DNA of 64,000 nt, taken from positions 25,242 to 89,241 of the IMG/VR virus record IMGVR_UViG_2799112330_000001. The stretch is one strand, 5' to 3'. Made by a program: the position numbers and the translations under genes. Source of the DNA: a virus. A model generated the notes under the pieces. It was not told the DNA's origin. It did not search any database and saw only the letters and a list, made by a program, of their open reading frames with translations. Shown here in pieces: positions 2,255 to 56,357 of the stretch (its first letter is position 1; every line of letters starts with the position of its first letter).

Positions 2255-3445
2255 ATGGGAAGGCATATAAATTCTAATACATATACTAAACAATATATCT
2301 TATCTAAAGTTAGTCAAGAACTAATTTTTAGTACCTATTTTCATATACCTATAGATATTATCAGAGATTGCATAGATAACAATACGTTAATAATATCTCC
2401 GATAAGAGAAGATAAACATCCTACTTGTGGTTTTCGTTATAATAATATAGGAATGTTAAAATTCCGAGATTTTGGTGGATATTTTTGGGGAGATTGTTTT
2501 GATGCTGTAGCATTAGTAATAAGTAAAGCTTATAATAAAACTTATGATATTAGTAATAAAAAAGATTTTATTCAAATACTAAAGCATATTTCATTAACAT
2601 TTAAAGATATTATAAATAATGAAGAAACTGATCCGAATATTATAACGAAAATCAATGAAGGAATATCTAAACTTCGTAAAGATAAACCAATTATTGATTT
2701 AGTTGTAAGAGAATGGAATAAAGAAGATATAAATTATTGGAATAATTTTGGTATAACAATACAAGATTTAAATATTAATTTTGTTTATCCTATAGAACAA
2801 TATTATATTAATAGAAAACAAAATCCAGAACCAAAATATTTTTACGATTCTAAAGATCCTTGTTATGCTTATTATTTAGGAAGAGGTAGTGATAATATAA
2901 ATAATTATAAATTATATTTTCCTAAAAGAACAAAAGATTCACATAATAGATTTATATGTAATTGTAATCATCTTGAAGGTATTTTAAATTTATCTGAAAG
3001 AGAATATACATATATTATTATAACAAAATCTACAAAAGATAGAATTGCATTATTTAGAGCTATAAAATATTATAGTTCACTCTACAGGGAAGAAAATATT
3101 AAAATAGGTGTAATAAATATTCCACATGAAACATATAAACTACGTGATATAGAACTTTCATGGTTACAAGATAAACTTATTAATAATGGAGAAATAGTTA
3201 CACTTATGGATAATGATAGAACTGGTATGATAGAAGCCTTATATTTTAAGAGAACTTTTAATTTTAAAGCTATATTAATACCAAAAACATATGAAGCAAA
3301 AGATTTTGCAGAATTGATGTCAAAGTTACCAATAAATAAAATTTGCGAACTAATTAAATCAACAATCAAAAAAATAAAAACAAGTAATGGAAAAAATATA
3401 TCAAATTCCAATTGTAGGGAACAAAATACTTCTTTACCGTTTTAA
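2255..3445 (+). CDS. DnaG/Toprim-like DNA primase
   Basis: The N-terminal segment SPIREDKHPTCGFRYNN...FRDFGGYFWGDCFD resembles a degenerate primase zinc-binding region. The C-terminal Toprim-like signature is IIITKSTKDRIAL ... TLMDNDRTGMIEA (DxD). Confidence 0.6.
   Translation: MGRHINSNTYTKQYILSKVSQELIFSTYFHIPIDIIRDCIDNNTLIISPIREDKHPTCGFRYNNIGMLKFRDFGGYFWGDCFDAVALVISKAYNKTYDISNKKDFIQILKHISLTFKDIINNEETDPNIITKINEGISKLRKDKPIIDLVVREWNKEDINYWNNFGITIQDLNINFVYPIEQYYINRKQNPEPKYFYDSKDPCYAYYLGRGSDNINNYKLYFPKRTKDSHNRFICNCNHLEGILNLSEREYTYIIITKSTKDRIALFRAIKYYSSLYREENIKIGVINIPHETYKLRDIELSWLQDKLINNGEIVTLMDNDRTGMIEALYFKRTFNFKAILIPKTYEAKDFAELMSKLPINKICELIKSTIKKIKTSNGKNISNSNCREQNTSLPF
3078..3089. repeat. GC-rich palindrome family copy (CACTCTACAGGG, 1 mismatch)
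   Basis: Inside the primase CDS, read as S-L-Y-R-E. Confidence 0.6.
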
Positions 3446-3842
3446 AGGAGAAAGAACTCATATTTCCGTATATATGGAAGGACTTACACAAGATGAATAT
3501 GACACAATAAAAAATAGACCTAAATCATGGTTAAATAGAGATAATAGAAAAATTGATATAACTGATAATACTTATATAGGTAAATTTAATATTAATGATG
3601 AAAATTTTGTTAAATATCTAGATTCTTTATTTGAAATTGATGAAAGAGGTAAATTTATAAATTCTAAATTTGATTTTGAGGCTTCAACTATTTCAACAAC
3701 TGAGGGTATTATGAAAGGCTATCCTACATGGATACCTTCTAAATATATTAAATATTGTTATTGTCAAATAGAAAAGCCTAAATATGTTATAATATATAGT
3801 TACACTTGTTATAATTATAAGAAAAATGGAACTAATACATAA
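3387..3842 (+). CDS. hypothetical protein (start uncertain; alternative ATG at 3474)
   Basis: 151-aa ORF overlapping the primase 3' end by 59 nt. The in-frame ATG at 3474 would remove the overlap. Confidence 0.55.
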   Translation: MEKIYQIPIVGNKILLYRFKGERTHISVYMEGLTQDEYDTIKNRPKSWLNRDNRKIDITDNTYIGKFNINDENFVKYLDSLFEIDERGKFINSKFDFEASTISTTEGIMKGYPTWIPSKYIKYCYCQIEKPKYVIIYSYTCYNYKKNGTNT

Positions 3843-4032
3843 TTTTATAATAAAATTAAATAATAAAATAATAGCATCTACTTGTGATAAAAATATAGCA
3901 TGGGAAATTTATGAAAATAAATCTGATTATTATGAAAATTTACAAGCAGAAAATAAATTATCTGAAGAATATGAATTAGTATTATTTGATTTAAATAAAA
4001 ATTGTGAATTAGCAAAAGCTAATTTTTATTAA
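3826..4032 (+). CDS. hypothetical small protein
   Basis: 68-aa ORF packed tightly in the co-directional gene array. Confidence 0.45.
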   Translation: MELIHNFIIKLNNKIIASTCDKNIAWEIYENKSDYYENLQAENKLSEEYELVLFDLNKNCELAKANFY

Positions 4033-4037
4033 ATAAT

Positions 4038-4685
4038 ATGGAAATTGAATATACATGTTTGGATTATTATAATCCTATAGAAAAAGCATGTGATTTATTA
4101 AAAATTGTTAAAATGCCTCTTAATAGGATGCGTTTAGCAAATTTACAACCATATAAAAATGATAATGATTTAAGAAAAATATTAACAGGTATATTAAAAG
4201 ATTTAGATTTAAGTAAAAGAATTGAAGGAATTATGCCTTTTAATACAAATAGCCCTAAATATCAAAGTTTACTTTCAGAATATATTTATTATTTGGAACA
4301 TTTAGAAAATCATTTAGAATATAATATATGGATTGATAAATTACTTGCTTTTCATGCTTCAAATTTAATTGAAGAAAAAAATTATATACCTCCTAAACAG
4401 CCTAAAAAGAAAACAACTAGTGGAAAATCTATCAAAAATGCTTTTTATAGAAGACAAACTACTGATTTATTTACAAATGATACAATATATGAATATATAA
4501 ATCCAAAAACTGGTACTATTATAAAAAGTGATAATCCTAATTTATGTGATAAATTAAATGCTGAAATAGAGCAAAATATAAAATATAATAGAGCAAGAAG
4601 TCATGCTAGAAAAAATCAAGAAAAAAGAGAATTTATTAGAATAAATACAAAGCCAGATTTTAATAAACTTAAATTTAAATTTTAA
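4038..4685 (+). CDS. hypothetical protein
   Basis: 215-aa ORF, co-directional with short spacers. No motif recognised. Confidence 0.6.
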   Translation: MEIEYTCLDYYNPIEKACDLLKIVKMPLNRMRLANLQPYKNDNDLRKILTGILKDLDLSKRIEGIMPFNTNSPKYQSLLSEYIYYLEHLENHLEYNIWIDKLLAFHASNLIEEKNYIPPKQPKKKTTSGKSIKNAFYRRQTTDLFTNDTIYEYINPKTGTIIKSDNPNLCDKLNAEIEQNIKYNRARSHARKNQEKREFIRINTKPDFNKLKFKF

Positions 4686-4688
4686 ATT

Positions 4689-5918
4689 ATGATAGAATCA
4701 AAAAATGAACATAAACTTCTATATAGAAGAAACAATAAAGGTCAACCTTGCTATTGGTGGGGAGAACCAGATAAAATTGATAAAGTAATAAGATTGCATC
4801 ATGGTATAGTAGGAAAAACTGATATTATTGATATGATTGTTACTAATAGAGATGTTGAAAAAGAATATCAATCTATGATTAATGAAAAACGTAAAGCTGG
4901 TTATAAATATATTTGGGAACTTAAAGACAATAATGATACCCCTGTAGAGGGAACATTGCTACAATATCTGAATACTTATCTTCCTTACGATAGAACTACT
5001 TCTGATGGAATGATGCTTTCTATGTTAGCTAAAACTTATGATAATGAAAATAATAAAGTATTTAATAAATGTCCTATATATTACGGACAATGGAAGATTA
5101 ATGGTTTAAGATGTTCTATTAGTGCTCATTATAATCAAGGAGATTTATTTAAACCTATAAGTTTAAGATTTCAAAGTCGTGAAGGAACTGTATGGAATAG
5201 TTTATCTGATTTAGAGAGCTATCTATTAAGTATTCTTCCTGCAAAATTATTAAATGATATGCTTGAAGAAGAATATATTCTTGATGGTGAAATTTATTTA
5301 CCTGGTCATACAGTTAACGAAATAAATCATTTTGTAAAAGATCCTAAATGTAAAGAAAATAAACTTCTTCAATATTGGTGTTATGATATTGCTATTCAAG
5401 ATTGTATACAAAGTACTAGAGAAAATATTAGAATAAAATATTTAGCAAATTTTGTTCCGTTTATTAAAACTAAACAAATGCACTATGCTAATCAACATAG
5501 ATTAATTGCTCTTCCAAGTATTGACATTTGTAATCATGAACAAGCAAGAGTTGCTAGAGATTTAGCTATTGAAAATGGTTTTGAAGGATTAATTCTTCGT
5601 AATCCTGATAAAGAATATCAATATGGCGCAAGAAATATGGCTATGATTAAATATAAACGTAGTACTGATGGAAAATTTATTATAGTTGATATTAAACCAG
5701 AAGGAATTAAACGACCAGATATACCTTTATTTGTTCTTAAAAATGATATAAATGATTCATTATTTGAAGTACATGTAGGAGGAAAATTTGATTATCAAAA
5801 ATTTATATTAAAAAATAAAAATTTATATATAGGAAAATTTATGTTTGTTGAATATGGAGAGAGAAGTGGTGTAGAACAAGTTCCTTTCCATGTTAAAGAA
5901 ACATATATAATCGATTAA
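4689..5918 (+). CDS. ATP-dependent DNA ligase
   Basis: Nucleotidyltransferase motifs appear in order. Motif I is WKINGLR (KxDGxR with D to N), III is ILDGEIYL, IV is YWCYDI, and V is EGLILRNPDKEYQYGARNMAMIKYK. Confidence 0.85.
   Translation: MIESKNEHKLLYRRNNKGQPCYWWGEPDKIDKVIRLHHGIVGKTDIIDMIVTNRDVEKEYQSMINEKRKAGYKYIWELKDNNDTPVEGTLLQYLNTYLPYDRTTSDGMMLSMLAKTYDNENNKVFNKCPIYYGQWKINGLRCSISAHYNQGDLFKPISLRFQSREGTVWNSLSDLESYLLSILPAKLLNDMLEEEYILDGEIYLPGHTVNEINHFVKDPKCKENKLLQYWCYDIAIQDCIQSTRENIRIKYLANFVPFIKTKQMHYANQHRLIALPSIDICNHEQARVARDLAIENGFEGLILRNPDKEYQYGARNMAMIKYKRSTDGKFIIVDIKPEGIKRPDIPLFVLKNDINDSLFEVHVGGKFDYQKFILKNKNLYIGKFMFVEYGERSGVEQVPFHVKETYIID
4940..4951. repeat. GC-rich palindrome family copy (CCCTGTAGAGGG, exact)
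   Basis: Inside the ligase CDS, read as P-V-E-G. Confidence 0.8.
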
Positions 5919-8578: not shown

Positions 8579-8596
8579 TTTCCCTCTACAGGGAAA
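8579..8596. repeat. GC-rich palindrome family copy, intergenic (TTTCCCT-CTAC-AGGGAAA, 7-bp stem)
   Basis: The exact core CCCTCTACAGGG is at 8582-8593. It lies between the stop at 8571 and the ATG at 8612, with no T-run after it. Confidence 0.8.
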
Positions 8597-8611: not shown

Positions 8612-9385
8612 ATGGAAAGTTTATATAATATAGAGCAAGATATGATTGCTCTTTATGATAAAATTGAAGAACAAGGAGGTGAAATACTTCCTGAAGATGA
8701 ACAAGCTCTTGCCATTAATCATGAAAATTTCATGAATAAAATGGAAGGTTATAATCATTATTTACATAAACTTGATAATGATATTTCTGCATGTAAAGCA
8801 GAAGAAGATAGAATTAAAGCTCTTCGTAAAGGAATGGAATCGCGAAGAGATACTGCTAAAAAGAATGTATTAACTGCTGTACAAAACTTTGGAGTACCTA
8901 CTAAAACTGGTGGATATGCAGTAGAGTTTGCTACATTTAAATTTAGTACTAGGCGTTCAGAATCTGTAGTTGAAGATGAAAAACGTTTAGAATATTTAAA
9001 CAAAGAATTAAATAGATTTATATATAGTTTATATGATAATGGAATGCTTAATCCTGATATAAATTGGGATTTACAAGGATTATGTGATTCAATTAATGCA
9101 AATATAAAAGCAGAAATGGAATCAGATGGTTGTGGTCATTTATATATTCCATTTACTCCAACTGATTTAGATTTAATTAATATTGATGTAAAATCTTCTT
9201 GTAAATTATCTTCTTTATTTAAAATTGATAATGGTATGGCACAAGTATTGTGTAAAGGAGCAACACTTTCTGCTGAATTAAGTATTGATAAAACAACTGC
9301 TAAAAATTATTTAAAAGCAACACAAGACGTTAACGTTATTAGTTGCTGTCATAAAGAAGTTAATTATAGTCTTCAAATGAAATAA
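8612..9385 (+). CDS. Gp157-like protein (phage recombination/host-nuclease-associated family)
   Basis: The N-terminal coiled-coil pattern MESLYNIEQDMIALYDKIEEQGGEILPEDEQAL...EDRIKALRK resembles the siphovirus Gp157 family. Judged by eye only. Confidence 0.4.
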   Translation: MESLYNIEQDMIALYDKIEEQGGEILPEDEQALAINHENFMNKMEGYNHYLHKLDNDISACKAEEDRIKALRKGMESRRDTAKKNVLTAVQNFGVPTKTGGYAVEFATFKFSTRRSESVVEDEKRLEYLNKELNRFIYSLYDNGMLNPDINWDLQGLCDSINANIKAEMESDGCGHLYIPFTPTDLDLINIDVKSSCKLSSLFKIDNGMAQVLCKGATLSAELSIDKTTAKNYLKATQDVNVISCCHKEVNYSLQMK

Positions 9386-10407: not shown

Positions 10408-11448
10408 ATGGGATATTTAAAAAAAGGTCTTCCTTTTAGTTATAAAGGAACTATAGATGTTAGTGATTGTGTAACATCAGAAGATGTTATTAAAAAAGCA
10501 AAACTTGATTGGGAAGTTGCTAAATGTGAAATTGTTGCTAAAATGCCTATGAATTTAAATCCAGATTCTAATAGAGATGGATTTAATTATGGAGGAATGC
10601 AATACACTCCTGTAGAAAGTATGTATGCTACTTATAGAACAGATTTAAATTTTCCTTTAGGTGTAGTAAAAGAAAAATATACTCCAGTGCAAAATATAGA
10701 TGCTTTTAAATTCTTTGATGATGCTATTGGTAAAAATAAAGCAATATGGCAAACCGCAGGATTCTTTGGTAATGGAGAAAAAATATTTGTAACTGCAAAA
10801 TTACCTCAAAATATATTTGTAAATGATGATATAATAGATAATTATTTAGTTTTTGCAACTTCTCATGATGGAACTATGGGAGTTAAAATATTACTTACTC
10901 CTATTCGTGTAGTATGTGAAAATACATTAAATGCTGCATTACAAAATAACGATGCTTATATTTCTTTTAGACATACAGAAAGTGTTCATGGTAGAATTGA
11001 TGCTGCAAAAGAAATATTAGGTATATGTGATGTAAAAATTAAAGCATTAAATGAATTATATCAAGGATTTAATAAAATTAAATTAACAGATACACAAGCT
11101 GCTGAATATTTTGCTAAATTAATTTTAAGTAAATCTGAATATGATAATTTATATCTAACTGGACATAATGCAATGCAACTTGTATTACGTAGTTCTAGTG
11201 CTATGTCTGATGCAGAAATTAGTACACGTAAATGTAATGTTATTGCAGAATTATATTATTATTATCTTAATGGAATAGGTCAAGAACAATTTAGAGGAAC
11301 TGGTTGGGGAGTATATAATGCAGTAAATGGATATTATTCTAATGTAGATAATATTGATGGTGTTAAACGAATGGATAGTCTGTTGTTTGGTGATAAGGCT
11401 AACAAAATTAAACAGAGCGGTGCTTTATTATTACAACTTGCTTCTTAA
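10408..11448 (+). CDS. DUF932-family (phage/plasmid-associated) protein
   Basis: The core TSHDGTMGVKILLTPIRVVCENTLNAAL matches the characteristic SHDGS...R.VC.N block of DUF932. Confidence 0.6.
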   Translation: MGYLKKGLPFSYKGTIDVSDCVTSEDVIKKAKLDWEVAKCEIVAKMPMNLNPDSNRDGFNYGGMQYTPVESMYATYRTDLNFPLGVVKEKYTPVQNIDAFKFFDDAIGKNKAIWQTAGFFGNGEKIFVTAKLPQNIFVNDDIIDNYLVFATSHDGTMGVKILLTPIRVVCENTLNAALQNNDAYISFRHTESVHGRIDAAKEILGICDVKIKALNELYQGFNKIKLTDTQAAEYFAKLILSKSEYDNLYLTGHNAMQLVLRSSSAMSDAEISTRKCNVIAELYYYYLNGIGQEQFRGTGWGVYNAVNGYYSNVDNIDGVKRMDSLLFGDKANKIKQSGALLLQLAS

Positions 11449-11485: not shown

Positions 11486-11497
11486 CCCTGTAGAATG
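11486..11497. repeat. GC-rich palindrome family copy, intergenic (CCCTGTAGAATG, 2 mismatches)
   Basis: Located between 11448 and 11527. The left arm TCCCCTGTAG is intact. Confidence 0.5.
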
Positions 11498-11526: not shown

Positions 11527-11838
11527 ATGAATACAACAATAATTGTTATTTGTTTTATAATAACATGGGTTATTATATTATTATTGTTTATTACTACTCA
11601 TTATAATACTACAGAAAGACTTCGTTCTATACGTCATTATGTTGCTAATTATTCTGATAATTATAGTTATTTTGAAAAAATTAAAAAGCAATATGAGACT
11701 TTAACAAAGAATATAGAATGTTTAAATAAAAAGATTGATAAATATATTGATAAAGTAGAAATTAATAAAGATTATTATCATAAGACAGCACAAAATAACG
11801 AAAATACAGCCTCTTTGAAGGACTCTAAATCAAAATAA
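11527..11838 (+). CDS. small membrane-anchored coiled-coil protein
   Basis: N-terminal hydrophobic helix TTIIVICFIITWVIILLLFITT followed by a charged helical tail. Confidence 0.55.
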   Translation: MNTTIIVICFIITWVIILLLFITTHYNTTERLRSIRHYVANYSDNYSYFEKIKKQYETLTKNIECLNKKIDKYIDKVEINKDYYHKTAQNNENTASLKDSKSK

Positions 11839-12035: not shown

Positions 12036-15000
12036 TTATTCTTTTAATGATTTACCTATTTCACGAAGACCAGCTTGAGCTTTAGAATTACCTGTACCAC
12101 CATTATAATAACTATTTCTAGCACCCATATTAAGAATATTTTTATAAATACGATACACAGGAATATTTCGTGTAGCAAGTACTTCAAGTTTATATCTTCC
12201 TTTATATTGACCTGTAGTATATTTTGGATTAAAATCATCATTAAATAAAATTTCACTTAATATTTCAAAACCTTTCATAATATCTTTAATATTGCTACTT
12301 CCAGCAACTGGACTAGCCCACAAAGAATCAAATTCAGAAATCATACCTGTAGGTAAATACATATAAGCTTCAGAGAACATACGATTAGCAGTATAAAGAG
12401 TATTCGCTAATAATAAATCATCTTTAAAATCTTCATCATCCCACATAGCATACATTCCAATAACTAATAATGCTGTACCAATAATTCCAGCAATATCACC
12501 TATTGCTCTAAGAATATTTCTTTGTTCCCAAGCAGGTAATAAATTCCAATTTAATGAAATATGTGTAATAGTAGCAATAAATGCATGAGCAATATTTTGT
12601 AAAGATTCTAATGCAGAAATATCTGTATCAACAATATTACCGTTTTCATCAATTATTTGTTTTTTCTTTAAATCTAAATTTCTAAATTCTGTAGATAAAA
12701 ATCTTAATAAAGAAGTATAACTACCCATTTCAACACCTTCAAGAAGTTCATTATAATATCCACCTCCACCAAATATTCCACGATATCTTTTCATAATACC
12801 AGGATAAATATGTTTGTGATATTGCATTACTAATGAACCCCAAAATTCATTTTCAATAGTAGCTCTTCCTAATTTATCATATACACCATGAATCTTTTTA
12901 TTAACATATATAATTCGTCTTGTAAATTCTTTAAAAGTAGTATTTCCTATAGTACTATCTAATTCTCCAGTTGAAGGATTTATATTAAGTTTAGAATCAT
13001 GTTTTATTCTAGTAACTCCACGACCATCTCCATTTTTGTTAAGTTTAAATTCAAATTGATCAATAAGTCTATCTTTAGTTTCAAATTCTTTTTTAGCTTT
13101 TTCTATAGCTGATTTTCTTCTTTTAATATATTCATTTGCTAATTTAGAATTATCATTTGCTTGTCTAGTTATTAACTGTATAAAATCCATACATATATCT
13201 TTTTTAAACGTATCATAATCATATTGAACTTTTTTATCTTTCTTTATATTTTTAATATAATTATTAAATAATGTAATTATAGAAGTACTATTAATTTTAT
13301 ATGAATCTCCCCATTCTGTTATAATTTCTTTTAAAGTTTCTATTTCTATATCTCTCATATAATCATTTATATTTCCAATTCTATATCCTCCATTTCCATC
13401 TTCATAAATTCTAGCATCTTCAATCATAGCGAGAGCTGCTGTATTTTGCATAAAATGTTCACCCATACTATTAGGACTAAATAAAAAATCATTTAATCTT
13501 CTAGCAAATTCAACAGCTGTCGCAGATTTAACAAGTTCTCCATTTATTTCATCATAATCTACTGCATTTATTAATTTTATTAATCCATTAGTAAAACTAC
13601 TAGCGTCGTCATAATACATATCAGCAATTGCAGATAATACATTTGCTCCATATTTAGCTTCTGCTTTCCACCATGCTTTATTACTAAAATATTCTCCTGC
13701 AAATCGCTCTGCTAAAATATTAACTAAACCTGTACTTACGTTAGCAATACCACCATGTATATTTAACATCATATATTTAGAACTTGTAAATCCTTGTAAC
13801 AAATTAGCAGCACCAGTTAATTTATGTTGTTTTTTATATTCATCATATATAACTCTTCTAGCAAATGTTTGCATAATTTTAAAAGCATGTTCTTGTTTTT
13901 CAGTTAAATATTTTATCATTTCAGGATTATTGCTAGAATTTTTATTAACAATAGGTTTACCTGTAATACGATTTCCTTTTATGGCGTCATTTTCTAATAA
14001 ATCTTCTAATAAAAGATAAAGACTATTTTTTGCTTTATTTCTGGCTAAATAATTTTCTCCATTTAAAACTAATTGACTATATACTTCTCTCCAATTACGA
14101 TTTAACATTGCACTATCTAACTCTAAATTATTTTTATGTATTTCTTCATTTTCTTTTTTAATATCATTTAAATATTTACTATATTGTTCGTCTGTCTCTC
14201 CTTCATTTCTAGGTCTTGCTTTAACTCTCTCTTTATATCCTTCATTTTTCAACAATTCAAACATTTGAAAATCTGGATCAGAATCATATAAATATCCAAT
14301 TTCTTCATGCCATTTATCATTAGCAGAACTTCTATAATTTACACCTAATATATCTAATACAACATTTCTTCTAAATTTTTTATCAGCTCTATGTTCCATT
14401 AATCTCGGAGCATAAGTATCAGCAAAACTTCTTTGTCCATTATTAATAACATATTTTCTTGCTGTATTTATTAAAAAATTAAGCATTTTTATTTCATTAT
14501 CGTTTAAATTAGCTTTTGAATATTTTTCATTTATATATTTTTTATCAGCAGTATCTTCTTTAAAATGAGAGCCATAAGTTTTATAATTTGGATTTCTATA
14601 GTCAACTTCATCATCATGCCTCGGATTTCTTTCACTATTATCAAATGTTGGAATATATTCATATTTGTTTCTACTTACTTCATTTTTAATTCTCATATTA
14701 GACCAAATAGGTATAGTTTCATATCGTTTAGTAAATTGATTATAAATATGATTTGCTTCAAACCATTCTTCAAAAGCTCCATTGTTAACCGCATTATCCC
14801 AAGCTTCTTTATAATATTCATTTGTTACATATTCAATATTTTCATCAATAAAATTTCTTGCAGCAGTTTTTTCTTTATCTATATATTTATCTTTTTGAGA
14901 TTCAATAGGAGATCTATATCCATAAAATAAATATTCAGGCACATATGTATTATCTTCCATAACTAAATCACCAGTTTCACTATCATGTTCAACGAACATT

Positions 15001-18000
15001 TGTAACCATATTGCAAATTTTGCAGGTTCAGATGTTTGAAAATGAGATTTAACAGTTAAATAATCTGCTTTAAAAGATTCATTATCTGTAACTTTTTCAG
15101 TAAGCGCTTTAAGTCTATTTCTTATATCTTTTGGTAATTTTTTACCTTTTATTTCTCTAAGTTCATTTATTTTATCTCTTAAATTTCTTAATTCTTCTAT
15201 ATTCAAATGACTTAATAATAATATCATATCTATACCTTTAGAAGTAACAGCATTTGCATTAACAAATATTTTATTTATTTCTTTAATTTTTTCTAATTTA
15301 TCAGCATTTTGAGAAAAATGTTCTCCACCATACACATCTAAATAAAATTTATCTTTATAAATAGGTTTTTTAAATCTAACTTGATTTATTAAAGCATCAT
15401 CACTTAATATAGAAGCATTAGAGCGCAATTTAGAATTTTCCATAGCATTTTTAATACCACGTTGTTGTTCTAATGATAATTTTCTTCCATCAATTCTACC
15501 AAATTCATCAACAAAACCATTACGTTTACACCAAATAGTAATATTTTTAAAAGTAGAATGTTTACTTCCTCTTAAAATTTCATAATTTTTAGAAATTTCT
15601 TTTAATGTTTTTTCATTTATACTATATATAGAATTTTTATTTACCCATACATATGCTTCTTTATAAGAAGGATTTTCTAATTTAGCATTTAAAGAAAGTC
15701 CTGGATGAAGTTTATCAAATTCAGAAATAATATCTAAATAATGACGAATAGTTTTAACCCATGAATCAGTAGGCTCATATTCTTTATATTTAGAATTTAT
15801 TTCTTTTAACGATTTTATATAATGATTAAGTATTTGTGCTTGTCTATCGATATAAATATTATCAGACGACATCGAAATTATTTCTCCATCTTCAGTTGTA
15901 TCAAATTCACCTTTAGTTTCTTGTGTTAATTCAGATAATCTAGAATGTATTTCTTTAATTCTTTTTATATCACTTTCTGTCATAGCAGAAGCATCATATG
16001 TAAACCCAGATAATTCATCTTTAAGTTTATTATATTCAATAAAATAATTAATAGCATTTTCTCCATTTATAGTTTCATCACCATATAAAATTCTTCTAGT
16101 AGCTTCATTTATAGCATCATAATATTCTTTTACTAAAAGTTGTTCAACATTTTTAGCAAACCATTCATCTCTTTCTAATTTTGCTTTTAACGCTTGTTCT
16201 GAATATTTACCATATTTAGCCATTGCTTCTATATAATTATCTATAACAGTTTGTTTATCTTCAAAATATTTATCATTATATTTTTGTATATATTTTCCAT
16301 GTTCATCTATAATTTTATTCATATCTATATTTCCAGATTTCATTATATTATCATATTTTTCTTGAAATTCTCTAACTGCATCTGGAGCTTCAATATCTCT
16401 AACTCTATCTATAATACCATAAACAAGTTTTAAAACTGTTTGTATTTGTTTATTATTTGTAAATCCTGCATCAGCAATTTGTAAATCAAACCAATTTATA
16501 TCACCAAACTGAGTACGAAGTTTTATTAAATCATGTCTAATTAATGGATTATTTGAATATTTTTTAGCAATATAAATATTAAATATATTACTAATCGCTC
16601 CATTTTCACCATTAAGAAGATTATTATTTCTAATTAAATTTATAGACTTTCTTATAGTTTCTATACTTTTATTAATAATTTCATCCTCTACTTCAACGTC
16701 TAAACTAAATACTTCACCTATATCTCTACCAAAATTTTTAGCATTGAGAATTAACGCAATCAAATCATCATAATATTCAGGATATTTTAATAATTCTTCA
16801 TATAAATTTGGATTACCAATATTAAAATCTTTTTTATTTTCTCCTTCACCTATAACATAATGTTTCATTCTATCTAAAAGAAGATTTGCTTCTTGTTCAT
16901 AATATGAAGCTGCAGAAACAAATATATTTCTTTTATTTTTTATAACAGAATCTTTATCATCTACAATTAATTCACCAGTAGAAACTTTTCTAGCAAATCT
17001 TTGTATTATACTATTATCTGAACGTTTTGAGCGATTATACATTCTTTTTGCTAATTCTCCAGCAAATTTATCTATAGGTTCAACTTTTGAGTCTAAAGGC
17101 CTACTTACATCATCTTCATCTATAAGTAAATTAGTTACAGCTGCTTTAATTTTTCTTTCATTATCTTCTTCTTTAACAGCTTCATTTAATTCCTCATCAG
17201 TTTTATATCCAATTTCTACACTCAATAACATATGTTTATCAGCAAATTTATTTTTAAATAAATAATCTATTAAATTATCTTCAGCTTTATTAGAGGTATA
17301 TTTTTTCTTACCACTTATAGCATTATCTCTTAAAATTCTTTTAAGACTTTCTAAGTTTTTACGTTTATAAGGTTTTATTATTATTGTATGAAGTTCTCCA
17401 TCAACAAGTATATCTTGAATTATAGAAGTATTTTCTTTAAATAAATTCATTAAATAAGGATTTAAAGTTGCAGCAACAGTATATTTCTTTATATCATCTC
17501 CTTCTACAGGGGTTTTAATAAAATCAGTTATTTGTTCAATAAACATTTCTATTCCTTTTTTAGAACTTTCATCTCCTTTTTCTCCATTTAATATTTGTTG
17601 AAATTCATCATTTTCCATTTTTTCAGCAGCATAAACAGGAATTTTATAATTTTCTACTTTATCTTCAGCTGTCGCTCTATTTTCATATTTATATTTATCT
17701 AAATCTACAGTAGGTAATACTTTTATAATATCTTTAAATTGAGTTTCATAATACTCGTGTTTATATAAAGGATTATTCTCTTCTTTTACAGAATAATCAT
17801 TATATTCATTTTCTTCTAATATTCCAATAGGATATAAATATATTCCATATAAAGCATTTTCTATTTCTATTCTTTCTACTTTATATAATTCAATTTTATC
17901 ATTCTTTGATTTTATTTTTACAAATCCTTTAGTTTGATCAGAACCTAAAATTTTCTTTATCAAAGATTGATTTGGACTATTTTTATTGCCTACTTTTATT

Positions 18001-26338: not shown

Positions 26339-33075
<6,737 letters not shown>

Positions 33076-33076
<1 letters not shown>

Positions 33077-38392: not shown

Positions 38393-38985
38393 ATCATTTT
38401 ATGTTTATATTTAAGATAATTTAATTTATTTCTTAAAATATTAATTTCTGCTCTCGCTCTGAAATTATATTTTAAGGCACCTAAAACTTCATCGGAAAAT
38501 TGTTCTGCTATTTCTTTATGTGTTAAGCCTTTTGTTTCAGGAGGTAAAGTATTTGTTGGAACAATACACACATCATGGCTACCAATTATATCCGATTTAA
38601 TTACCATAGCTCTTATTTTATAATCAGTATCTTTATATACTATACATTCTACTCCGTCATAAGCTATTCCTGCTTTAGCATAATCTTCAGCTTCTTGTTT
38701 ATCATAAATTTTAATACCTTTTGCAAGTAATTCTTTTTTCTTTCTTTGAGTAGCAGGCCAGTCTATTACATTATGTTTTTTAACAAGACTCATATCTTCA
38801 TATTCTATTAATAATATTCCAAGACCATTTGTAAATCTTACTCCATTACCTTTTACAACTTCATTCATTACCTCAATATAATGCCTACAAATAAGTCTTT
38901 TATATTCTTCAAATGAAATATTTTTATAAGATTGTGTTCGACTTATAAAATCATTATAATAATCTTTTATTGTTAAACTTTTCAT
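38389..38985 (-). CDS. HU/IHF-like DNA-binding protein (tentative)
   Basis: The N-terminal region ...YIEVMNEVVKGNGVRFTNGLGILLIEY resembles the HU/IHF helix plus G..V.L.G.G.F core. IHF-like genes are known in the structural block of crAss-like phages. The C-terminal extension is unassigned. Confidence 0.35.
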   Translation of the reverse strand: MKSLTIKDYYNDFISRTQSYKNISFEEYKRLICRHYIEVMNEVVKGNGVRFTNGLGILLIEYEDMSLVKKHNVIDWPATQRKKKELLAKGIKIYDKQEAEDYAKAGIAYDGVECIVYKDTDYKIRAMVIKSDIIGSHDVCIVPTNTLPPETKGLTHKEIAEQFSDEVLGALKYNFRARAEINILRNKLNYLKYKHKMI

Positions 38986-42700: not shown

Positions 42701-44259
42701 CCAGCTCTTCTATTATAACTTGCTATTATAGTTTCTGGTACTTGATTTAATCCTTCTGAAACATCATCTATATAATTTGTAAAATCATAAGATTCTATTA
42801 TTCCATCATGATATATAACACCTAATAAATATATTTTTAATCCATTTTGTAAAAATAAACTTATTTCATTTCCAACACTTCTACCATTAAGCCATCCTTT
42901 ATTATCAATTATATCATAAAGTATACTTGTGCCACTTAAATTTATTACTGATTTATTATTTATATATCCTTCAGCATTATATCCTTGTATTAAAATATAT
43001 CTTTTTACAGCATTTATATCAAAATTATTTCCTAAAATAGATCTCAAAATATAATATTTATCTGCAAAAAAAGATTTTTTAAAATTTACATAATTTTGAA
43101 ACCATCTATCAAATGAAATATTTGGTATTGATGAAACAGGAATTAAATTTACATTATTAGCTAAATTTCTATTATATTCTTTTAAAATATCTGTATAATT
43201 ATTTTCTTTATAAGAAGCAATATATAAACGATTTTTATAAGCTATCATATTATTTATATTGCTTATATAATAATTAAAATTTTCAAATTCTTCTTCATAA
43301 ACATTATTAATATCTAATGTATATTCATTTACAGTTGTATTTATTTTTTTAGTTACATACTTTTTTAAAGAAGTTCTATTATGAACTATAATTCCCAAAG
43401 AAAAATATGTATAATTAGTATCTAAATTATCAAATATTAATTTTAAAGTATTATTTATTATATCATTATTGTTATTTAACATCGCATTATGATCTTCAAT
43501 AGTTTCGCTATCATTTAATTTATATCTTAATAAAACTTTTTTTTCTAATTCTAATAATATAAAATTATTTAATAATAAAAAATATTTTGTTTTATTTATA
43601 TCATCTGTATAATAAGAAATATAAATATCTATATATCCAGAATAAAATTTACCATTTACTTTAGAAACATTTAATAATTTTGGTAAAGAAATTAAAGGAT
43701 TATTAAATAATTTATTTTCTTCTATATCTATATTTTCAATTGTTCTTTTTAAATTAATAATGGAATAACCATTTTTAGAATTACTTTCCGCAAAAGAAAT
43801 TATTAAATCTTCATTATTATATATATATTCTCCAACATATTTTCCACCATAATAAGTCAATGCTGAATAAACTCTATTTATTACTTTTGTTCGTTCATCA
43901 TATCTAATTAATTCAACACATTTTGAACCATTTGGATTAATAACTTTAGACAAACTTTTATTCCAAACAAATAAAATTAATTCATTATTACATGGTAAAA
44001 TATAAAGTATTTTATAACCTTTAATATATCCTACTAAAGGATTAATATAAACATCAGGATAAATAGATTTTAAATAATTCATTATAATTTCATTATCTCC
44101 AACTTCTTCAATATTTTGTAGAGCCATTCTATCATTACTCATTCTCATATTTATAGTATCATGAAGACTATAATTTGGAACACCATTTATGTGTTTATTA
44201 AGGCTCATCATAGGAACAATATTACCTAAAGCCTTCCATTCTTGTTGTTCTTGAGCCAT
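39736..44259 (-). CDS. large tail structural protein (tail hub/muzzle-class candidate)
   Basis: 1507-aa ORF, Asn/Tyr/Ile-rich and beta-rich in character. It lies between the cargo-like genes and the small head-tail genes. Function is inferred from size and position only. Confidence 0.45.
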   Translation of the reverse strand: MAQEQQEWKALGNIVPMMSLNKHINGVPNYSLHDTINMRMSNDRMALQNIEEVGDNEIIMNYLKSIYPDVYINPLVGYIKGYKILYILPCNNELILFVWNKSLSKVINPNGSKCVELIRYDERTKVINRVYSALTYYGGKYVGEYIYNNEDLIISFAESNSKNGYSIINLKRTIENIDIEENKLFNNPLISLPKLLNVSKVNGKFYSGYIDIYISYYTDDINKTKYFLLLNNFILLELEKKVLLRYKLNDSETIEDHNAMLNNNNDIINNTLKLIFDNLDTNYTYFSLGIIVHNRTSLKKYVTKKINTTVNEYTLDINNVYEEEFENFNYYISNINNMIAYKNRLYIASYKENNYTDILKEYNRNLANNVNLIPVSSIPNISFDRWFQNYVNFKKSFFADKYYILRSILGNNFDINAVKRYILIQGYNAEGYINNKSVINLSGTSILYDIIDNKGWLNGRSVGNEISLFLQNGLKIYLLGVIYHDGIIESYDFTNYIDDVSEGLNQVPETIIASYNRRAGLRRALQLNSELVDDGNNKLAIYAFQLIIGYNSNGSVLTDNIYGVSTHLGLSNNYGKGIRILTSDDKVNWNDLNVSNFTAFSSNSYYEDMQINKNIFDVEDYYPIFITRENNSKNISLRPLQIYNFYIHLVDNFGNITTGIRLKNNTLLKNGDNNADNDNYTLVYLPGILNYSAMGEGNDYSIYKGFYVIKENIKLDENAIFYRVNNVYKVNNNLWKFNLDGTQINNTLMIEDFNSSCLSIGLLEISNGNVVTNGNIGFGRYINVLGESFFVAPIEKINNIVLMNIIDNNNYINKEIFKNYYISCSKPCENVLYQCRGFIYKYYSNDWRNFGIIYDNMFNIKAKPVFNYLYEIYSTNDNYNIFDAIRNKVNGALLKINNSRLCLAGEPSTHRPDRGTVIQVNDYDISLDDRYRDLFSNLTILNELDIILLLNYSDNYYLNINDTYEELHICGEINTFKDNFPIGGDSVMYTKTSNIYDERGFKWNLEINNPRTTIDENRKAELLSKILYTIDNTGESSLYIKSVGNIGKDCSYVLPINSLNLFDISLESYHKSILFPFYKFDDRNIENKANTILFTNVYGDESKINTWNKIEVESYKLISENKGKIVKLFVLGESMFIHCEQSIYLLQFKDYLATTEESLQITQSSIKDISYKELLPTDKGYAGLQDKDAAIIGSFGYIFYENDINRILRLDNNQLIHIDYPILEWLQKYKPYKVRFANDVERNNLLIQFNYIVNNEEKLLILLYDYAINTFISTLNSNIFWFTEAYNTKNKLYLLQNNKFINNGLTYETSAIKCFNNYKFEKNIFKILNQNSEYIELTNKLGFVYNYNYNGIKFLENIMFKLFKYTKSEDPNTQNSIDFTNDPIENIRIPFCGDYVRIYNENIDTGWIDIKNAQNQNFNDRNNYDLPYYYLGDWIMNMFRNIRNKINDINYSKISGKDYTKADDRARLYGNYFIIEFGFNVNNFNDESDKFEIQSLVVNTTQQTNNM

Positions 44260-45189: not shown

Positions 45190-46038
45190 TTAATTTCTTG
45201 GGTCAAAAGCTCCAATAAAGAAACTACTTCTCCATAAACGAGCAAGTTCTCCATTTAAAGCATCTTCAACACCATGATTGATATAACTTCTTTTTGCTTC
45301 TTCCATCAGAGATTGAGCTATATAATATGGATTTGTACCATATTGACTAGCATGTAAATTCATTACAGAATGTTTATAACCTCTAAGAAGCATTTTATAA
45401 ATACACCAATATGCTAAAAATTCTATAACTTTAGCATTATCAGGTATTTCTGGAAAATCACAATTATAAATATTACTATGACAAGTATTAACTTCATCAT
45501 GTTCTACAATAATATAATCTGTATCAAAATTTAATTCAATATGTTTGCAATCTACTAAAACATAATTTCTTCCTTCTACAGGGGAACTAGAATAAACCTC
45601 AGTTACATTATATCTACTACCATCTCCACCATTTACTTGTGTGATAACAACTTTATCTGGAACTTCAGAAGGATTACGATTTTCAATAATAAATGTAGTG
45701 TTAGAACCATTGCTTGCAATTTTTTGTATTTGATTCCCTGTAGTGTGATCATCTATTTTTACACAACAATCATTATTTTTAATATCGTCAAGTTCTTTAA
45801 TTTCACATCCGTTAGCATCATAAATTTTAATATTTCCTTTTAATTCGCATTTGCTATAAGCAACTCTTCCTATAACCTTAAATTTTTCTTTTACTCTTTT
45901 TGTTACATTAATATCTAACAAACCAAGTCCGTCATGAACCCATGCACCAACTCTTGGTATCCAATCAGAATTATCAGGATTAAAATCATTATCAATTTTA
46001 GCGATAATTCTATCAATGTTTGTTACTTTTTCTTTCAT
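45190..46038 (-). CDS. hypothetical structural protein
   Basis: 282-aa ORF. It contains two palindrome-family copies 164 nt apart in opposite orientation (45572, 45736). Confidence 0.6.
   Translation of the reverse strand: MKEKVTNIDRIIAKIDNDFNPDNSDWIPRVGAWVHDGLGLLDINVTKRVKEKFKVIGRVAYSKCELKGNIKIYDANGCEIKELDDIKNNDCCVKIDDHTTGNQIQKIASNGSNTTFIIENRNPSEVPDKVVITQVNGGDGSRYNVTEVYSSSPVEGRNYVLVDCKHIELNFDTDYIIVEHDEVNTCHSNIYNCDFPEIPDNAKVIEFLAYWCIYKMLLRGYKHSVMNLHASQYGTNPYYIAQSLMEEAKRSYINHGVEDALNGELARLWRSSFFIGAFDPRN
45572..45583. repeat. GC-rich palindrome family copy (CCTTCTACAGGG, 1 mismatch)
   Basis: The sense strand reads S-P-V-E-G. Confidence 0.6.
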
Positions 46039-46062: not shown

Positions 46063-46764
46063 TTATCTAACTAAATTAGGAGTTGGAATTTTATCGTCAT
46101 CTCTTACTACATTAACATTAAATGTTTCTAATACTAATTTTTTAACATCATCAATCATATCTTCAGGTAAGAAATATTCATAATCGTCATCTATTTTATA
46201 AGTACCATCACTTCCTGTTTCCATTTCTACAATTTCTGGTTTTTCAAAAGGAGCTTCAATAACTATAGAACCAATGTCTGCAAGTTCATTTTCTTTTATA
46301 ACATTAATATATATATAATCATTAATGTAATCATATGTTATAGAAGGACAAAAACCAGGTAAATTAGCATAAAATTGACTACTAGCTTCTCTAACAAAAG
46401 GAATAACAATAGGATTTTTTACACCAACAGTTTTAACTGCACTAAAAGGTAAATTATTAGTAAGTCTTGTAGGTCTTGGTACTTTATTTAAAGTTCTTTT
46501 AATTATACCTGCTCCTATTTTATAATCTTTATCACTAATACCAGCACTAGCATAATCTATATCACCATCACCAACGTCAACAAGAGCAACTCTATATCTT
46601 TGTTGTATAACTCTGTCTATATAGCCATGAGTTTCATAGCTATGTCTAATTAATTTATTCCTTGCATGAATAATCGCAAGTTTAATCCCTCGACGAGTAG
46701 GGATATTATCTGCTCCTTGAACACTATGAGCAATTTCAGAAACTAATTGATTAATACTTGCCAT
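46063..46764 (-). CDS. hypothetical structural protein (start corrected to ATG 46764)
   Basis: The track start at 46800 lies upstream of the -7 box (46790-46797). The first ATG after the promoter gives MASINQLVSEIAH... This gene also holds the related hairpin ATCCCT-N8-AGGGAT at 46685-46704. Confidence 0.6.
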   Translation of the reverse strand: MASINQLVSEIAHSVQGADNIPTRRGIKLAIIHARNKLIRHSYETHGYIDRVIQQRYRVALVDVGDGDIDYASAGISDKDYKIGAGIIKRTLNKVPRPTRLTNNLPFSAVKTVGVKNPIVIPFVREASSQFYANLPGFCPSITYDYINDYIYINVIKENELADIGSIVIEAPFEKPEIVEMETGSDGTYKIDDDYEYFLPEDMIDDVKKLVLETFNVNVVRDDDKIPTPNLVR

Positions 46765-46789
46765 ATCTTTATAATTGTTAATTGTGATA

Positions 46790-46821
46790 CAAAGATACAA
46801 AAAATTTTTGACATTTGCAAA
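46790..46821 (-). promoter_or_regulatory. Bacteroidota-type promoter (TTTG-N20-TATCTTTG)
   Basis: The - strand reads TTTG (46821-46818), then 20 nt, then TATCTTTG (46797-46790). Confidence 0.65.
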
Positions 46822-47348: not shown

Positions 47349-47837
47349 TTATTGTTTAATTGAGTTAATAAATTCATTATAAGTTAAATTGGGATTGATT
47401 TGAACAGCTGTTTGAAAACGTTTAAATAATTCAATTTCTTTATTAGATTCTTTTATAATAGCAGATTTCTTATCTTTAATATTAAGAAGTTGTTTTTCAA
47501 GTATTACTTTGCCTTCTTTAGAATTAGCAACTTTATTTTTTACTGAATCAACTAAAGCATTTTGAACAAGTTTTTGAAGCGCAGTATCATATTTTATATA
47601 ATCTTCGTCTTTACTTAATAAAACTTTTTGTTCATCTGTAAGACTATCTATTTCTTTATCAATTTGCTCCCATAATTTCATTCCTCCCTCTACAGGGGAA
47701 ACACCACCTGAAAGTTTTTCTTTAATAGCATTTAATTGAGCTACTTGTTGATTTATCATTGCAATATTTTGCTCAACACTTACTGTAGGTAAATATGGAG
47801 ATTGACCTCCAATATTAAAATTTAATGTTTCTGGCAT
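47349..47837 (-). CDS. hypothetical coiled-coil protein
   Basis: 162-aa ORF containing an exact palindrome copy. Confidence 0.55.
   Translation of the reverse strand: MPETLNFNIGGQSPYLPTVSVEQNIAMINQQVAQLNAIKEKLSGGVSPVEGGMKLWEQIDKEIDSLTDEQKVLLSKDEDYIKYDTALQKLVQNALVDSVKNKVANSKEGKVILEKQLLNIKDKKSAIIKESNKEIELFKRFQTAVQINPNLTYNEFINSIKQ
47687..47698. repeat. GC-rich palindrome family copy (CCCTCTACAGGG, exact)
   Basis: The sense strand reads S-P-V-E-G-G. Confidence 0.8.
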
Positions 47838-53159: not shown

Positions 53160-53183
53160 AATTATTTATTTTTGATTGTTAAT

Positions 53184-54734: not shown

Positions 54735-54736
54735 AA

Positions 54737-55447: not shown

Positions 55448-55454
55448 AACTATG

Positions 55455-55667
55455 TTATATTAAATAATTATATAAATTTTCTATACTCTCTTTTGTTTCA
55501 TTTTCAGTACTTAATAAATCATAAACATCTTTCATTTTATAATTTATCCATAATATAAAATTTTTACAAATATTATCAGTTTTATTAACAATGCCTAAAT
55601 TAGACATATTATTATTACTTATAACAGACTCTGTATATAAGTCTAGCAATTTATCAAAATTAATCAT
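55455..55667 (-). CDS. hypothetical small protein
   Basis: 70-aa ORF with an ATGA overlap to the upstream gene. Confidence 0.45.
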   Translation of the reverse strand: MINFDKLLDLYTESVISNNNMSNLGIVNKTDNICKNFILWINYKMKDVYDLLSTENETKESIENLYNYLI

Positions 55668-56230
55668 TTTAAAGCTTTATTTTGCATATAACTAATATAT
55701 GTTTGAAATCTTATTGTAATTTTATTAATATATCCCATCATTTTATCTTCACGACTAAGACTTGGATTATAAATAGAATCTATTAAATCAGTTTCAATTT
55801 CTTTTAACCAATGAGCATCAATGTAATCTGAAATTCTACCATTATTAATAGAATATAGAGAAAGAGTTTGAAAAACTGTATAATATGCAGAATTTGCAGC
55901 ATTGTGAATATTAGCAAGAACACTATCTTTATTAGTATCAAGATGATTACTAATTAAAGTTCTTTGCATAAAATTTATAAGATTAAAAGCTGCATTATTG
56001 AAAGAATTGTCTATTATAATTTTACACTTTTCTCTATTTTCAGCTTCTCTCTTATTGTATATTTCATTCACGACTGTTTGAATATCTGTTATTGCTTCTA
56101 CTGTTTCTGTACTAATTTTAGTTTGATATTTTTCTTTTCTAACTCTTATAATTTCTATTATAATAAGATATAAAGCAATTACTATAGCAGGAGCTATTCC
56201 TTGCTCTAAAGCATTTAATAACAATTCCAT
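55664..56230 (-). CDS. hypothetical protein with N-terminal TM helix
   Basis: 188-aa ORF. GIAPAIVIALYLIIIEIIRV is near the N-terminus. Confidence 0.55.
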   Translation of the reverse strand: MELLLNALEQGIAPAIVIALYLIIIEIIRVRKEKYQTKISTETVEAITDIQTVVNEIYNKREAENREKCKIIIDNSFNNAAFNLINFMQRTLISNHLDTNKDSVLANIHNAANSAYYTVFQTLSLYSINNGRISDYIDAHWLKEIETDLIDSIYNPSLSREDKMMGYINKITIRFQTYISYMQNKALK

Positions 56231-56251
56231 AATAAAATAATAAAGAGGAGA

Positions 56252-56277
56252 TTATTGATAACGTTAATTATCAATAA
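56252..56277. repeat. 10-bp-stem hairpin TTATTGATAA-N6-TTATCAATAA in the 56231-56380 spacer
   Basis: Read directly. It lies just upstream of the 56230 start. Confidence 0.5.
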
Positions 56278-56345
56278 CCCCCTCTACTATTTAAATTATA
56301 CACTAATATTATTCTATTTGTACAATATCAGATTTGTATCTGTTA

Positions 56346-56357
56346 CCCTGTAGAGGG
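56346..56357. repeat. GC-rich palindrome family copy, intergenic (CCCTGTAGAGGG, exact)
   Basis: It lies 24 nt downstream of the stop of 56381..57310. It is flanked by ATTTGT / ACAAAT, which could extend the stem. A half-site CCCCCTCTAC is at 56278-56287. Confidence 0.8.

Follow-up and report, generated by a model that had tools for sequence, protein, structure and literature searches.

Gene content of the window and the dispersed motif

The DNA analysed here, referred to below as the window, is a 64,000-nucleotide stretch of the IMG/VR virus record IMGVR_UViG_2799112330_000001 (positions 25,242 to 89,241 of that record), and the element under study is a short GC-rich motif dispersed through it. 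The window has a base composition of ~25% G+C, and the closest published genomes to it are those of Intestiviridae crAss phages, with ~50% protein identity. Its genes are directed along the + strand up to ~11.8 kb and along the - strand beyond this point. They include a primase, a DNA ligase, ThyX and a Gam-like gene, as well as a 4723-aa open reading frame (ORF, 12036..26207) which aligns at ~30% amino acid identity with the genes for the virion RNA polymerase in p-crAssphage and crAss002. The motif of this phage consists of 12–13 bases, CCCTGTAGAGGGA, and is found in ~16 copies on both strands, within genes as well as between them (Table 1).

The motif is the most enriched 8–10-mer family of the window (40–560 times the expectation of a third-order Markov model). 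The exact 12-mer CCCTGTAGAGGG is present in 5 copies and is absent from 100 dinucleotide shuffles; 11 sites are found at up to one mismatch and 16 distinct sites at up to two mismatches, against 0.04 and 0.35 expected from such shuffles, respectively. The repetition of the 12-mer, which a preliminary description of this DNA had regarded as non-random, is thereby confirmed. Synonymous-codon shuffling inside the ORFs points the same way: coding sites at up to one mismatch drop from 9 to ~0.16, this control being approximate since the frame was lost in the shuffling of a few trimmed genes. Against the ~17 copies of the preliminary description, the count here is ~16 good sites and one decayed site (27635). 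The places at 34558, 54844 and 56278 are half matches only, and that at 46685 is a different hairpin. Two of the sites that had been listed as weak do belong to the family: 41749 is a two-mismatch copy, and 27635 is a decayed copy at a place where the related contig L135 has a perfect one. Most of the coordinates given earlier were right, except that '23050' and '47687' are 23030 and 47686. The hairpin TCCCTCGACGAGTAGGGA at 46685..46703 stands alone; it has the same arms with an 8-nt loop, lies within the ring-protein ORF and is by its sequence outside the motif family.

The conserved part of the motif is asymmetric (yCCCTGTAGA..GA, the full form being yCCCTGTAGAGGGA). Thirteen of the 16 copies lie within ORFs and three, as had been noted before, between them (8582, 11486 and 56346); half are antisense, and a promoter-like placement (intergenic and sense) is not observed. 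Among the seven sense copies six read P[VL][ED]G and one reads QCRG, while the six antisense ones are split between SLY[RG] (three) and PSTG or HTTG (three). Both orientations and several frames had been recognized earlier; the coding copies use four reading frames over the two orientations. An artefact of peptide or codon usage, including the derivation of all copies from one peptide module repeated in a single frame, was rejected on account of these four frames, the three intergenic copies, the differing frames of orthologous copies (see below) and the removal of copies by the synonymous shuffle.

Table 1. Copies of the motif in the window and their counterparts in related genomes. Mismatches are counted against CCCTGTAGAGGG; coordinates are those of the window, except for the last row, where they are those of L239.
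Sequence	Position	Strand	Location	Counterparts
CCCTGTAGAGTG (1 mismatch)	3078..3089	-	antisense in primase ORF 2255..3445, variable-length loop	orthologous to p-crAssphage 16626 and crAss002 74263 (primase)
exact copy	4940..4951	+	sense in DNA ligase ORF 4689..5918, peptide TPVEG	orthologous to p-crAssphage 18157 and ctbg_1 76237 (ligase)
exact copy	8582..8593	-	between ORFs, 19 nt upstream of Gam-like gene 8612..9385	
CCCTGTAGAATG (2 mismatches)	11486..11497	+	between DUF932 gene 10408..11448 and small membrane-protein gene 11527..11838	
CCCTGTAGAAGG (1 mismatch)	17500..17511	-	sense in virion RNA polymerase-type ORF 12036..26207	orthologous to ctbg_1 62958
CCCCGTAGAGGG (1 mismatch)	18440..18451	+	antisense in ORF 12036..26207	
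CCCTTTAGATGG (2 mismatches)	21802..21813	-	sense in ORF 12036..26207	
CCCCGTAGAGTG (2 mismatches)	23030..23041	+	antisense in ORF 12036..26207	orthologues: ctbg_1 58045 and, as a perfect copy, L135 1940
CCCTGTAAGTGG (decayed, 3 mismatches)	27635..27646	-	ORF 26339..33076	perfect copy in L135 (6462-)
CCCTGTAGATGG (1 mismatch)	30038..30049	+	antisense in ORF 26339..33076, adjoins (ATT)n run	copy in L205 ~130 nt off in aligned coordinates
exact copy	36802..36813	+	antisense in ORF 35881..37812, peptide PSTG	copy at this position in IMG/VR relative L081
CCCTTTAGAGGG (1 mismatch)	37409..37420	-	sense in ORF 35881..37812	
CAATGTAGAGGG (weak, 2 mismatches)	41749..41760	-	ORF 39736..44259	
CCCTGTAGAAGG (1 mismatch)	45572..45583	-	sense in ORF 45190..46038 (homologue of p-crAssphage gp50, annotated P22 gp4-like tail tubular protein), peptide SPVEG	orthologous to p-crAssphage 58515, there in another frame (TPRGG)
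CCCTGTAGTGTG (2 mismatches)	45736..45747	+	antisense in ORF 45190..46038	orthologous to p-crAssphage 58727 and ctbg_1 36034
exact copy	47686..47697	-	sense in ORF 47349..47837	kept together with its flanks in L107 at 20858
exact copy	56346..56357	+	between ORFs 55664..56230 and 56381..57310	same 13-mer at the corresponding place in L107 and L032
GGCCACAAGGGCGAGAGGTGTTCCGAAA (cr127_1 motif)	1767, 11354, 11910, 19697, 28696, 28869, 42038, 42230		L239	

Directly after the copy at 30038 there is an (ATT)12 microsatellite (30050..30085), which encodes an Asn run in the - strand frame of the 2245-aa ORF.

Dialects of the motif in crAss phages

The k-mer enrichment was repeated without a preset motif on each of the published genomes, and viral contigs were scanned with one 14-mer variant. 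In p-crAssphage, crAss002, ctbg_1 and cr3_1 the k-mer family with the highest enrichment is a related motif. Every Intestiviridae genome examined carries 17–31 copies of its own dialect, and a core made of a C-run followed by GTARAGG is common to the dialects. In p-crAssphage (Carjivirus communis) the motif reads ACYCCCCGTRGAGGATGGA and is present in 31 copies; 13 positions of its 15-nt core are invariant, and weaker conservation extends out to ~25 nt. The form found in crAss002 is TCCCCCRTARAGGAG (26 copies), that of ctbg_1 is cTGGCCCGTARAG(gga) (18 copies), and that of cr3_1 is yTCCCCCGTARAGGAA (17 copies in 50 kb). The dialect of the window itself is shared by the relatives L107, L027, L081, L135 and L205, and the 14-mer scan revealed that crAss relatives bear the motif at places equivalent to those of the window. 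Viral contigs were searched with single proteins as well: the MCP-neighbour ORF 58004..59128 yielded four loci, and the search for close relatives with ORF 35881..37812 yielded nothing.

L135 (CAMMMH010000002.1) is a 92,923-bp contig from a 'Tenericutes' metagenome-assembled genome. It is a crAss-like phage genome with the dialect of the window, and its RNA polymerase gene has 68% nucleotide identity with that of the window. Its placement in 'Tenericutes' is probably due to mis-binning caused by low G+C.

A different GC-rich motif of ~30 nt, GGCCACAAGGGCGAGAGGTGTTCCGAAA, occurs in cr127_1 (L239, Crevaviridae) in 8 copies in 50 kb (Table 1). The style of its distribution is similar: the copies are genic and intergenic, stand in both orientations, and their close pairs are always inverted. 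Each of them is preceded by a TATAAT-like hexamer, and the motif may be either the Crevaviridae counterpart of the one described here or a promoter-like element. The first 50 kb of the Steigviridae phage phi14:2 contain no comparable motif. The first 50 kb of crAss001 (Steigviridae, L115) contain a weaker CTCCAGAAGGA-like sequence in 17 copies in both orientations; its 9–11-mers reach ~64 times the expectation, and same-orientation copies within 2 kb do occur. This sequence may be either an analogue of the motif or a coding (TPEG) effect.

Conservation of positions and selection on DNA

For assignment of orthology the sites were mapped through protein alignments, and a site was counted as orthologous if the other genome had one no more than 8 aa away. 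Among the window, p-crAssphage and ctbg_1, 35–60% of the alignable coding sites are orthologous, the fraction being lower in comparisons with crAss002, and the orientation relative to the gene is identical in every orthologous pair. The chance of a site in such a span is ~1.5%, as estimated, not simulated, from a density of ~1 per 3–4 kb and a span of 51 nt. Both the position and the orientation of the motif are conserved across the family. In the RNA polymerase gene the site 23030 of the window has no direct mapping onto p-crAssphage or crAss002 sites in this analysis; its orthologue ctbg_1 58045 maps to p-crAssphage 39092, and the latter to crAss002 53878.

The orthologous copies sit in poorly conserved loops of variable length, which are shorter in outgroups. 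They are kept at the same positions of the genes yet are read in different frames, as LYR/LYGG versus PLRG in primase and as SPVEG versus TPRGG in the tail tubular protein. This means that selection acts on the nucleotide sequence and not on the peptide, as the preliminary description had supposed. The same preservation is seen between genes: around the counterparts of the copy at 56346 in L107 and L032 the surrounding intergenic DNA is poorly alignable, and the 13-mer forms an island of identity. Comparison of the crAssphage reference with strain O-152 revealed 2 changes in 403 invariant core positions, whereas the flanks are 3.47% divergent (P=8e-5), i.e. divergence is ~7-fold lower in the core; one site is identical in 19 of 19 positions within a region of 74.5% identity. 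In crAss002 ligase a decayed, substituted remnant without any indel is found at the missing site, and no filled and empty alleles indicative of insertion or excision were seen among close relatives or strains.

Spacing and orientation

The motif occurs once every 3–5 kb. When gaps are measured after merging of sites less than 500 bp apart, their coefficient of variation is 0.43, 0.58 and 0.55 in three complete genomes against ~0.93 for random placement (P=1e-4, 0.002 and 0.007, respectively), and 0.67 in the partial window. Of 105 pairs of neighbours in five genomes, 72 have opposite orientations (P=9e-5). There are no same-orientation neighbours closer than 2 kb, with 24.4 expected (P<2e-4), and within this distance opposite-orientation pairs are about as frequent as expected by chance (31 versus 29.3). 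The motif forms two interleaved arrays, one per strand, each of which avoids itself and is independent of the other. The strict alternation which had been reported for the first ten copies holds for the first eight robust sites and is part of this wider pattern.

The two strands are used about equally (8+/7- in the window, 18+/13- in p-crAssphage and 11+/15- in crAss002), and so are the sense and antisense orientations (7:6 in the window, 9:12 in p-crAssphage). Close convergent copies are only 27–35 bp apart, and very close opposite pairs form long perfect intergenic palindromes, such as those at 22901/22928 in p-crAssphage and at 64741/64776 in crAss002. The '+' class of p-crAssphage, taken alone, has a maximal gap of 8.4 kb versus 18.9 kb in simulations; this is not so in all genomes.

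The question of a hairpin

It was proposed in the preliminary description that the arms of the motif form a tetraloop hairpin. Read in this way, the motif would be a stem-loop in RNA or single-stranded DNA that serves for pausing, processing or, as in N4, promoter recognition. The dialect of the window is able to form a CCCT/AGGG stem, and at site 8582 the flanks lengthen the palindrome to 7 bp (8579-8596), this copy being picked by the terminator scan; moreover, the crAss-like virion RNA polymerase transcribes only single-stranded DNA (10.1101/2020.03.07.982082). However, only 67.7% of the cells of the proposed 6-bp stem are paired in the 16 window copies versus 68.2% in shuffles. No compensatory pairs are present in these copies, all departures being unpaired cells. 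The invariant part of the motif is CCCTGTAG-A..GA: CCCT stays fixed, while the 3' arm, which is the least conserved part, drifts (AGTG, AATG, AAGG, ATGG, TGTG). The CCCT/AGGG stem is confined to the window's dialect; the dialects of p-crAssphage, crAss002, ctbg_1 and cr3_1 retain the sequence core and form no stable stem. No Rfam family matched at gathering score across the whole window. The hairpin was rejected because covariation is lacking and the stem is absent in the other dialects; the stem-loop reading is largely refuted by these data and is hardly tenable. Any role at the RNA level is unlikely, because the copies are sense and antisense to the genes in a ratio of ~50:50. The middle promoters of crAss phages are intergenic and sense (10.1101/2020.03.07.982082), unlike the copies of the motif.

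Search for a putative recognizing factor and for a host origin

The product of 38389..38985, suggested earlier as an HU/IHF-like binder of the motif, has no match in Pfam or PHROG and was discarded. Beside the tail tubular gene, where the p-crAssphage genes annotated 'integration host factor IHF subunit' lie, the window contains ORF 46063..46800 (-), and this ORF matches Pfam CrAss_Ring_2 (tail ring protein 2) with E=1e-38. Judging from this match, the long-standing 'IHF-like' label of a crAss signature gene seems to describe a structural tail protein. The idea of an IHF-like binder fails because this crAss 'IHF-like' family corresponds to the tail ring protein. RepL was considered as a binder of the iteron type; in p-crAssphage, repL genes lie downstream of two of the three intergenic pairs of close copies. 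It was rejected, as neither crAss002 nor the window has a detectable RepL, and the small gene downstream of 11486 in the window encodes a membrane protein. The DUF932 gene (TIGR03299, 'phage/plasmid-related'; 10408..11448, + strand, in the window) has homologues in all six motif-bearing genomes examined and is absent from the replication half of the motif-less phi14:2; the correlation is weak and the family widespread. Sequence searches of the PDB with four ORFs of the replication module without assigned function gave no relevant match: three of them had none at all, and ORF 391..1197 had only weak ones (E 0.0035-0.02) to designed helical repeat proteins. No repressor-like families matched among the ORFs scanned, many of which had no match of any kind. 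RecT and a PD-(D/E)XK nuclease are present in these genomes, and several HNH or GIY-YIG endonucleases are encoded by crAss genomes.

The sites 8582 and 11486 bracket a block composed of the Gam-like gene, a gene without assignment and the DUF932 gene. The gene that follows, 11527..11838 (+), and its equivalent in ctbg_1, 68377..68787, are each the last gene of the replication module and adjoin the giant RNA polymerase gene at its 3' end. Their products are small, with a transmembrane segment at the N-terminus and, after it, a long stretch that is polar and charged, and a motif copy lies 10-30 nt upstream of the start of both genes.

In a scan of the genomes of 185,579 bacterial species the matches listed were single and chance-like, in unrelated taxa. 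Among the 118 contigs listed more than one match was found only in the crAss-like L135 and L205, which are probably both mis-binned, and in no bacterial contig. In ~69 kb of Bacteroidota DNA the core is not enriched (a low-power test). The motif appears not to have been borrowed from a host chromosome, both tests being limited in power.

Comparison with known dispersed signals

The lack of a described function claimed in the preliminary description agrees with our searches by exact sequence and by keywords, in which no published mention of the motif was found; the coverage of these searches is incomplete and an earlier description elsewhere is possible. The motif is not mentioned in the crAss002 paper, the Crassvirales review, Yutin 2021, the structural atlas or the virion RNA polymerase preprint.

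Dispersed recognition motifs as such are already known from phages and bacteria, and among the closest are the localized nicks of T5, phiKMV-like and LUZ24-like tf phages. These have a short asymmetric consensus of 9-19 nt in 4-14 copies per genome, some of them in genes, at similar positions in relatives and all on one strand (PMC3517423). The crAss motif shares with them the asymmetric consensus, copies in genes, positions common to relatives and variants specific to lineages; the function of nick sites is still obscure after decades. It differs in being used on both strands equally and in having close convergent pairs.

The DNA uptake sequences (DUS) of Neisseria and the uptake signal sequences (USS) of Pasteurellaceae have a 9-12 nt core with weaker flanks, exist in dialects, occur about once per kb and serve the uptake machinery of the cell. 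The resemblance to the motif is extensive: it includes the core with weaker flanks, the dialects, balanced orientations, even spacing, inverted intergenic pairs, and location of the in-gene copies in tolerant protein segments and in particular frames. The crAss motif, however, is viral, is found once per 3-5 kb, shows same-orientation exclusion and is not known to take part in uptake. Of the features expected from an uptake or host signal, dispersal, both orientations, even spacing and copies in genes are observed, but over-representation in the host is not, in the DNA sampled. Chi, the host signal of RecBCD and AddAB, is 5-8 nt long, species-specific, read on one strand by a translocating enzyme over kilobases, and marks DNA as 'self'. 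The motif resembles it in being dispersed and orientation-dependent in style; in contrast to Chi, which is strongly co-oriented with replication, it is orientation-balanced, 12-19 nt long and absent from the host DNA sampled. The stoperators of Cluster A mycobacteriophages, which are temperate, are asymmetric sites of 13-14 bp in 20-35 copies bound by the repressor, and their orientation follows transcription. They are likewise genome-wide, partly located in genes and common in position to relatives, and they co-evolve with the phage repressor. The orientation of the crAss motif, on the other hand, does not depend on transcription, and the phage has no known repressor or integrase.

The ssiA/ssiB sites of RSF1010, G4-type single-strand initiation (ssi) sites and mitochondrial OriL are structured elements of 40-140 nt present once or twice per replicon. 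They are strand-specific signals in single-stranded DNA for primase or RNA polymerase, and those of RSF1010 form an inverted pair on opposite strands; the crAss motif, unlike them, is a genome-wide array of 12-19 nt sites. The N4 virion RNA polymerase uses three hairpin promoters, which are stem-dependent and located upstream of early genes in one orientation. Common to both cases are a small GC-rich hairpin, an AT-rich phage and a giant virion RNA polymerase, but the stem of the crAss motif is not conserved and its copies are everywhere. The motif thus fails a defining feature of each of the known families compared.

Possible function of the motif

The sense:antisense balance, the shifts of frame between orthologues, the conservation between genes and the absence of structure point to a signal read on DNA. 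The copies are homogeneous within each genome in spite of their ancient positions, and the dialects differ by lineage, which argues for a single co-evolving trans-acting reader; we infer that this reader is a protein and is encoded by the phage. The motif would then act in cis as a recognition signal in DNA, and the factor that reads it, co-evolving and probably encoded by the phage, would need coverage of the whole genome on two strands; we assign to this reading a probability of about 0.55. According to it, the 12-mer would be the version of a crAss-family signal proper to the window phage, read as sequence and not as a hairpin, and the factor reading it, most probably a phage-encoded one, would change together with it. 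The signal may mark the phage's own DNA for a machine that acts over kilobases, on one strand or in one direction, with a logic akin to that of Chi, DNA uptake sequences or single-strand initiation (priming) signals. By analogy, we read the layout as that of a self-marking or loading signal which would serve a DNA-processing machine of the phage, because even coverage of two strands would be the logic of a machine working over kilobases. As to the process served, replication or recombination is our first choice, though a somewhat doubtful one, while packaging and site-specific nicking both seem rather improbable.

In its broader form the proposal can be put forward only tentatively. Intestiviridae would carry a genome-wide system of cis-signals made of two strand-specific arrays of a 12-19 nt motif, which predates the genera, resides in coding loops and is read by a phage machine. 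Such a system may be a virus-encoded counterpart of self-marking by Chi and uptake sequences or of programmed lagging-strand priming, and Crevaviridae would carry a different, longer motif of the same style.

Several points weigh against the recognition-signal reading. The mechanism is deduced from sequence statistics of six genomes, and the trans factor was not found among the candidates examined (IHF-like, RepL). The dialects do not track phylogeny cleanly, cr3_1 being close to crAss002 despite different subfamilies, which leaves room for a host factor; absence from host genomes was only sampled, among the matches listed. The orientation rule could stem solely from avoidance of close direct repeats, which are prone to deletions by RecT and exonuclease, the function itself being indifferent to orientation. 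Finally, known Chi sequences have 5-8 nt and primases usually read 3 nt, so the core of 12-15 nt exceeds what is usual for them.

The main alternative, though an unlikely one, develops the point on direct repeats: the motif may be a site bound, irrespective of its orientation, by an architectural, condensing or packaging protein that requires the genome to be covered evenly, with close direct repeats purged because they lead to deletions via single-strand annealing. The even spacing, the degenerate CC...GG symmetry seen in all dialects, the perfect intergenic palindromes formed by close inverted pairs and the presence of RecT and the PD-(D/E)XK nuclease are consistent with such a site, and the exclusion zone of ~2 kb is similar to the processivity of lambda-type exonuclease, which is of this order. 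It is difficult to reconcile with the central GTARA and the flanks, which are asymmetric and strongly conserved, and with the two orientation classes of p-crAssphage, each of which by itself leaves no large gaps (a feature not shared by all genomes); moreover, no candidate binding protein was found among the ORFs examined. Recognition by a phage site-specific nickase is by precedent a serious rival, in spite of being quite improbable: besides the similarities listed above, the dialect differences of the described nick sites have been ascribed to co-evolution of nickase and site (PMC3517423), and crAss genomes have several endonuclease genes. The described sites are nevertheless confined to one strand, convergent copies 27-35 bp apart would risk double-strand breaks if both were nicked, and there is no sequence sign of a nick.

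The copies may also be functionless remnants of a selfish miniature insertion element, like the GC clusters of yeast mitochondria or the Rickettsia palindromic elements, inserted in-frame in tolerant loops; a GC-rich quasi-palindrome in AT-rich DNA, located in variable-length loops that are shorter in outgroups, in both orientations and in all readable frames, would look like this. It is nonetheless very unlikely, as sites are lost by point substitution and not by excision (crAss002 ligase), no presence/absence indels separate close relatives, the core is under purifying selection within species, and one dialect per genome is found despite ancient positions; neither even spacing nor same-orientation exclusion is expected of such an element. 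The alternative of a signal borrowed from the host, of Chi or DNA-uptake type, with dialects tracking the host species, accounts for the DUS/USS-like pattern and for dialects that do not follow the phage phylogeny exactly. It seems highly improbable in view of the scan of species genomes, where only single chance-like matches were listed besides two crAss-like contigs, of the Bacteroidota DNA without enrichment (low power), and of the 12-15 invariant bases, far more than in any known Chi.

crAss-like phages dominate the human gut virome, the prototype crAssphage being the most abundant human gut virus, and their replication, packaging and persistence are poorly understood. An element that keeps its positions from genus to genus and has 31 copies in p-crAssphage provides a handle on these processes, namely sites to mutate, baits for pull-down and places in which to look for nicks, primers or bound proteins. 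If priming or self-recognition is indeed programmed by the signal, this would be a new principle for a virus. The motif constrains the proteins as well, giving rise to the recurrent tetrapeptides PVEG, PSTG and SLYG in loops, and it needs to be preserved when these phages are recoded or engineered. Its dialects may serve as lineage markers, and it is a source of short repeats able to confuse assembly and recombination analyses.

Other repeated elements of the window

The second most enriched 9-mer of the window is TGCTAGAGA, with 6 copies at 210, 5552, 8075, 33596, 58428 and 62902. It is invariably sense and stands in the frame Ala-Arg-Glu/Asp (ARE/ARD), which indicates a coding or codon-usage effect and not a DNA signal. 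A separate inverted repeat without relation to the dispersed motif, TTATTGATAATTAACGTTATCAATAA, is located at 56242..56283 (- strand view), with GTAGAGGGGG in front of it and ORF 55664..56230 closely downstream; it has the appearance of an operator or of a leader hairpin.

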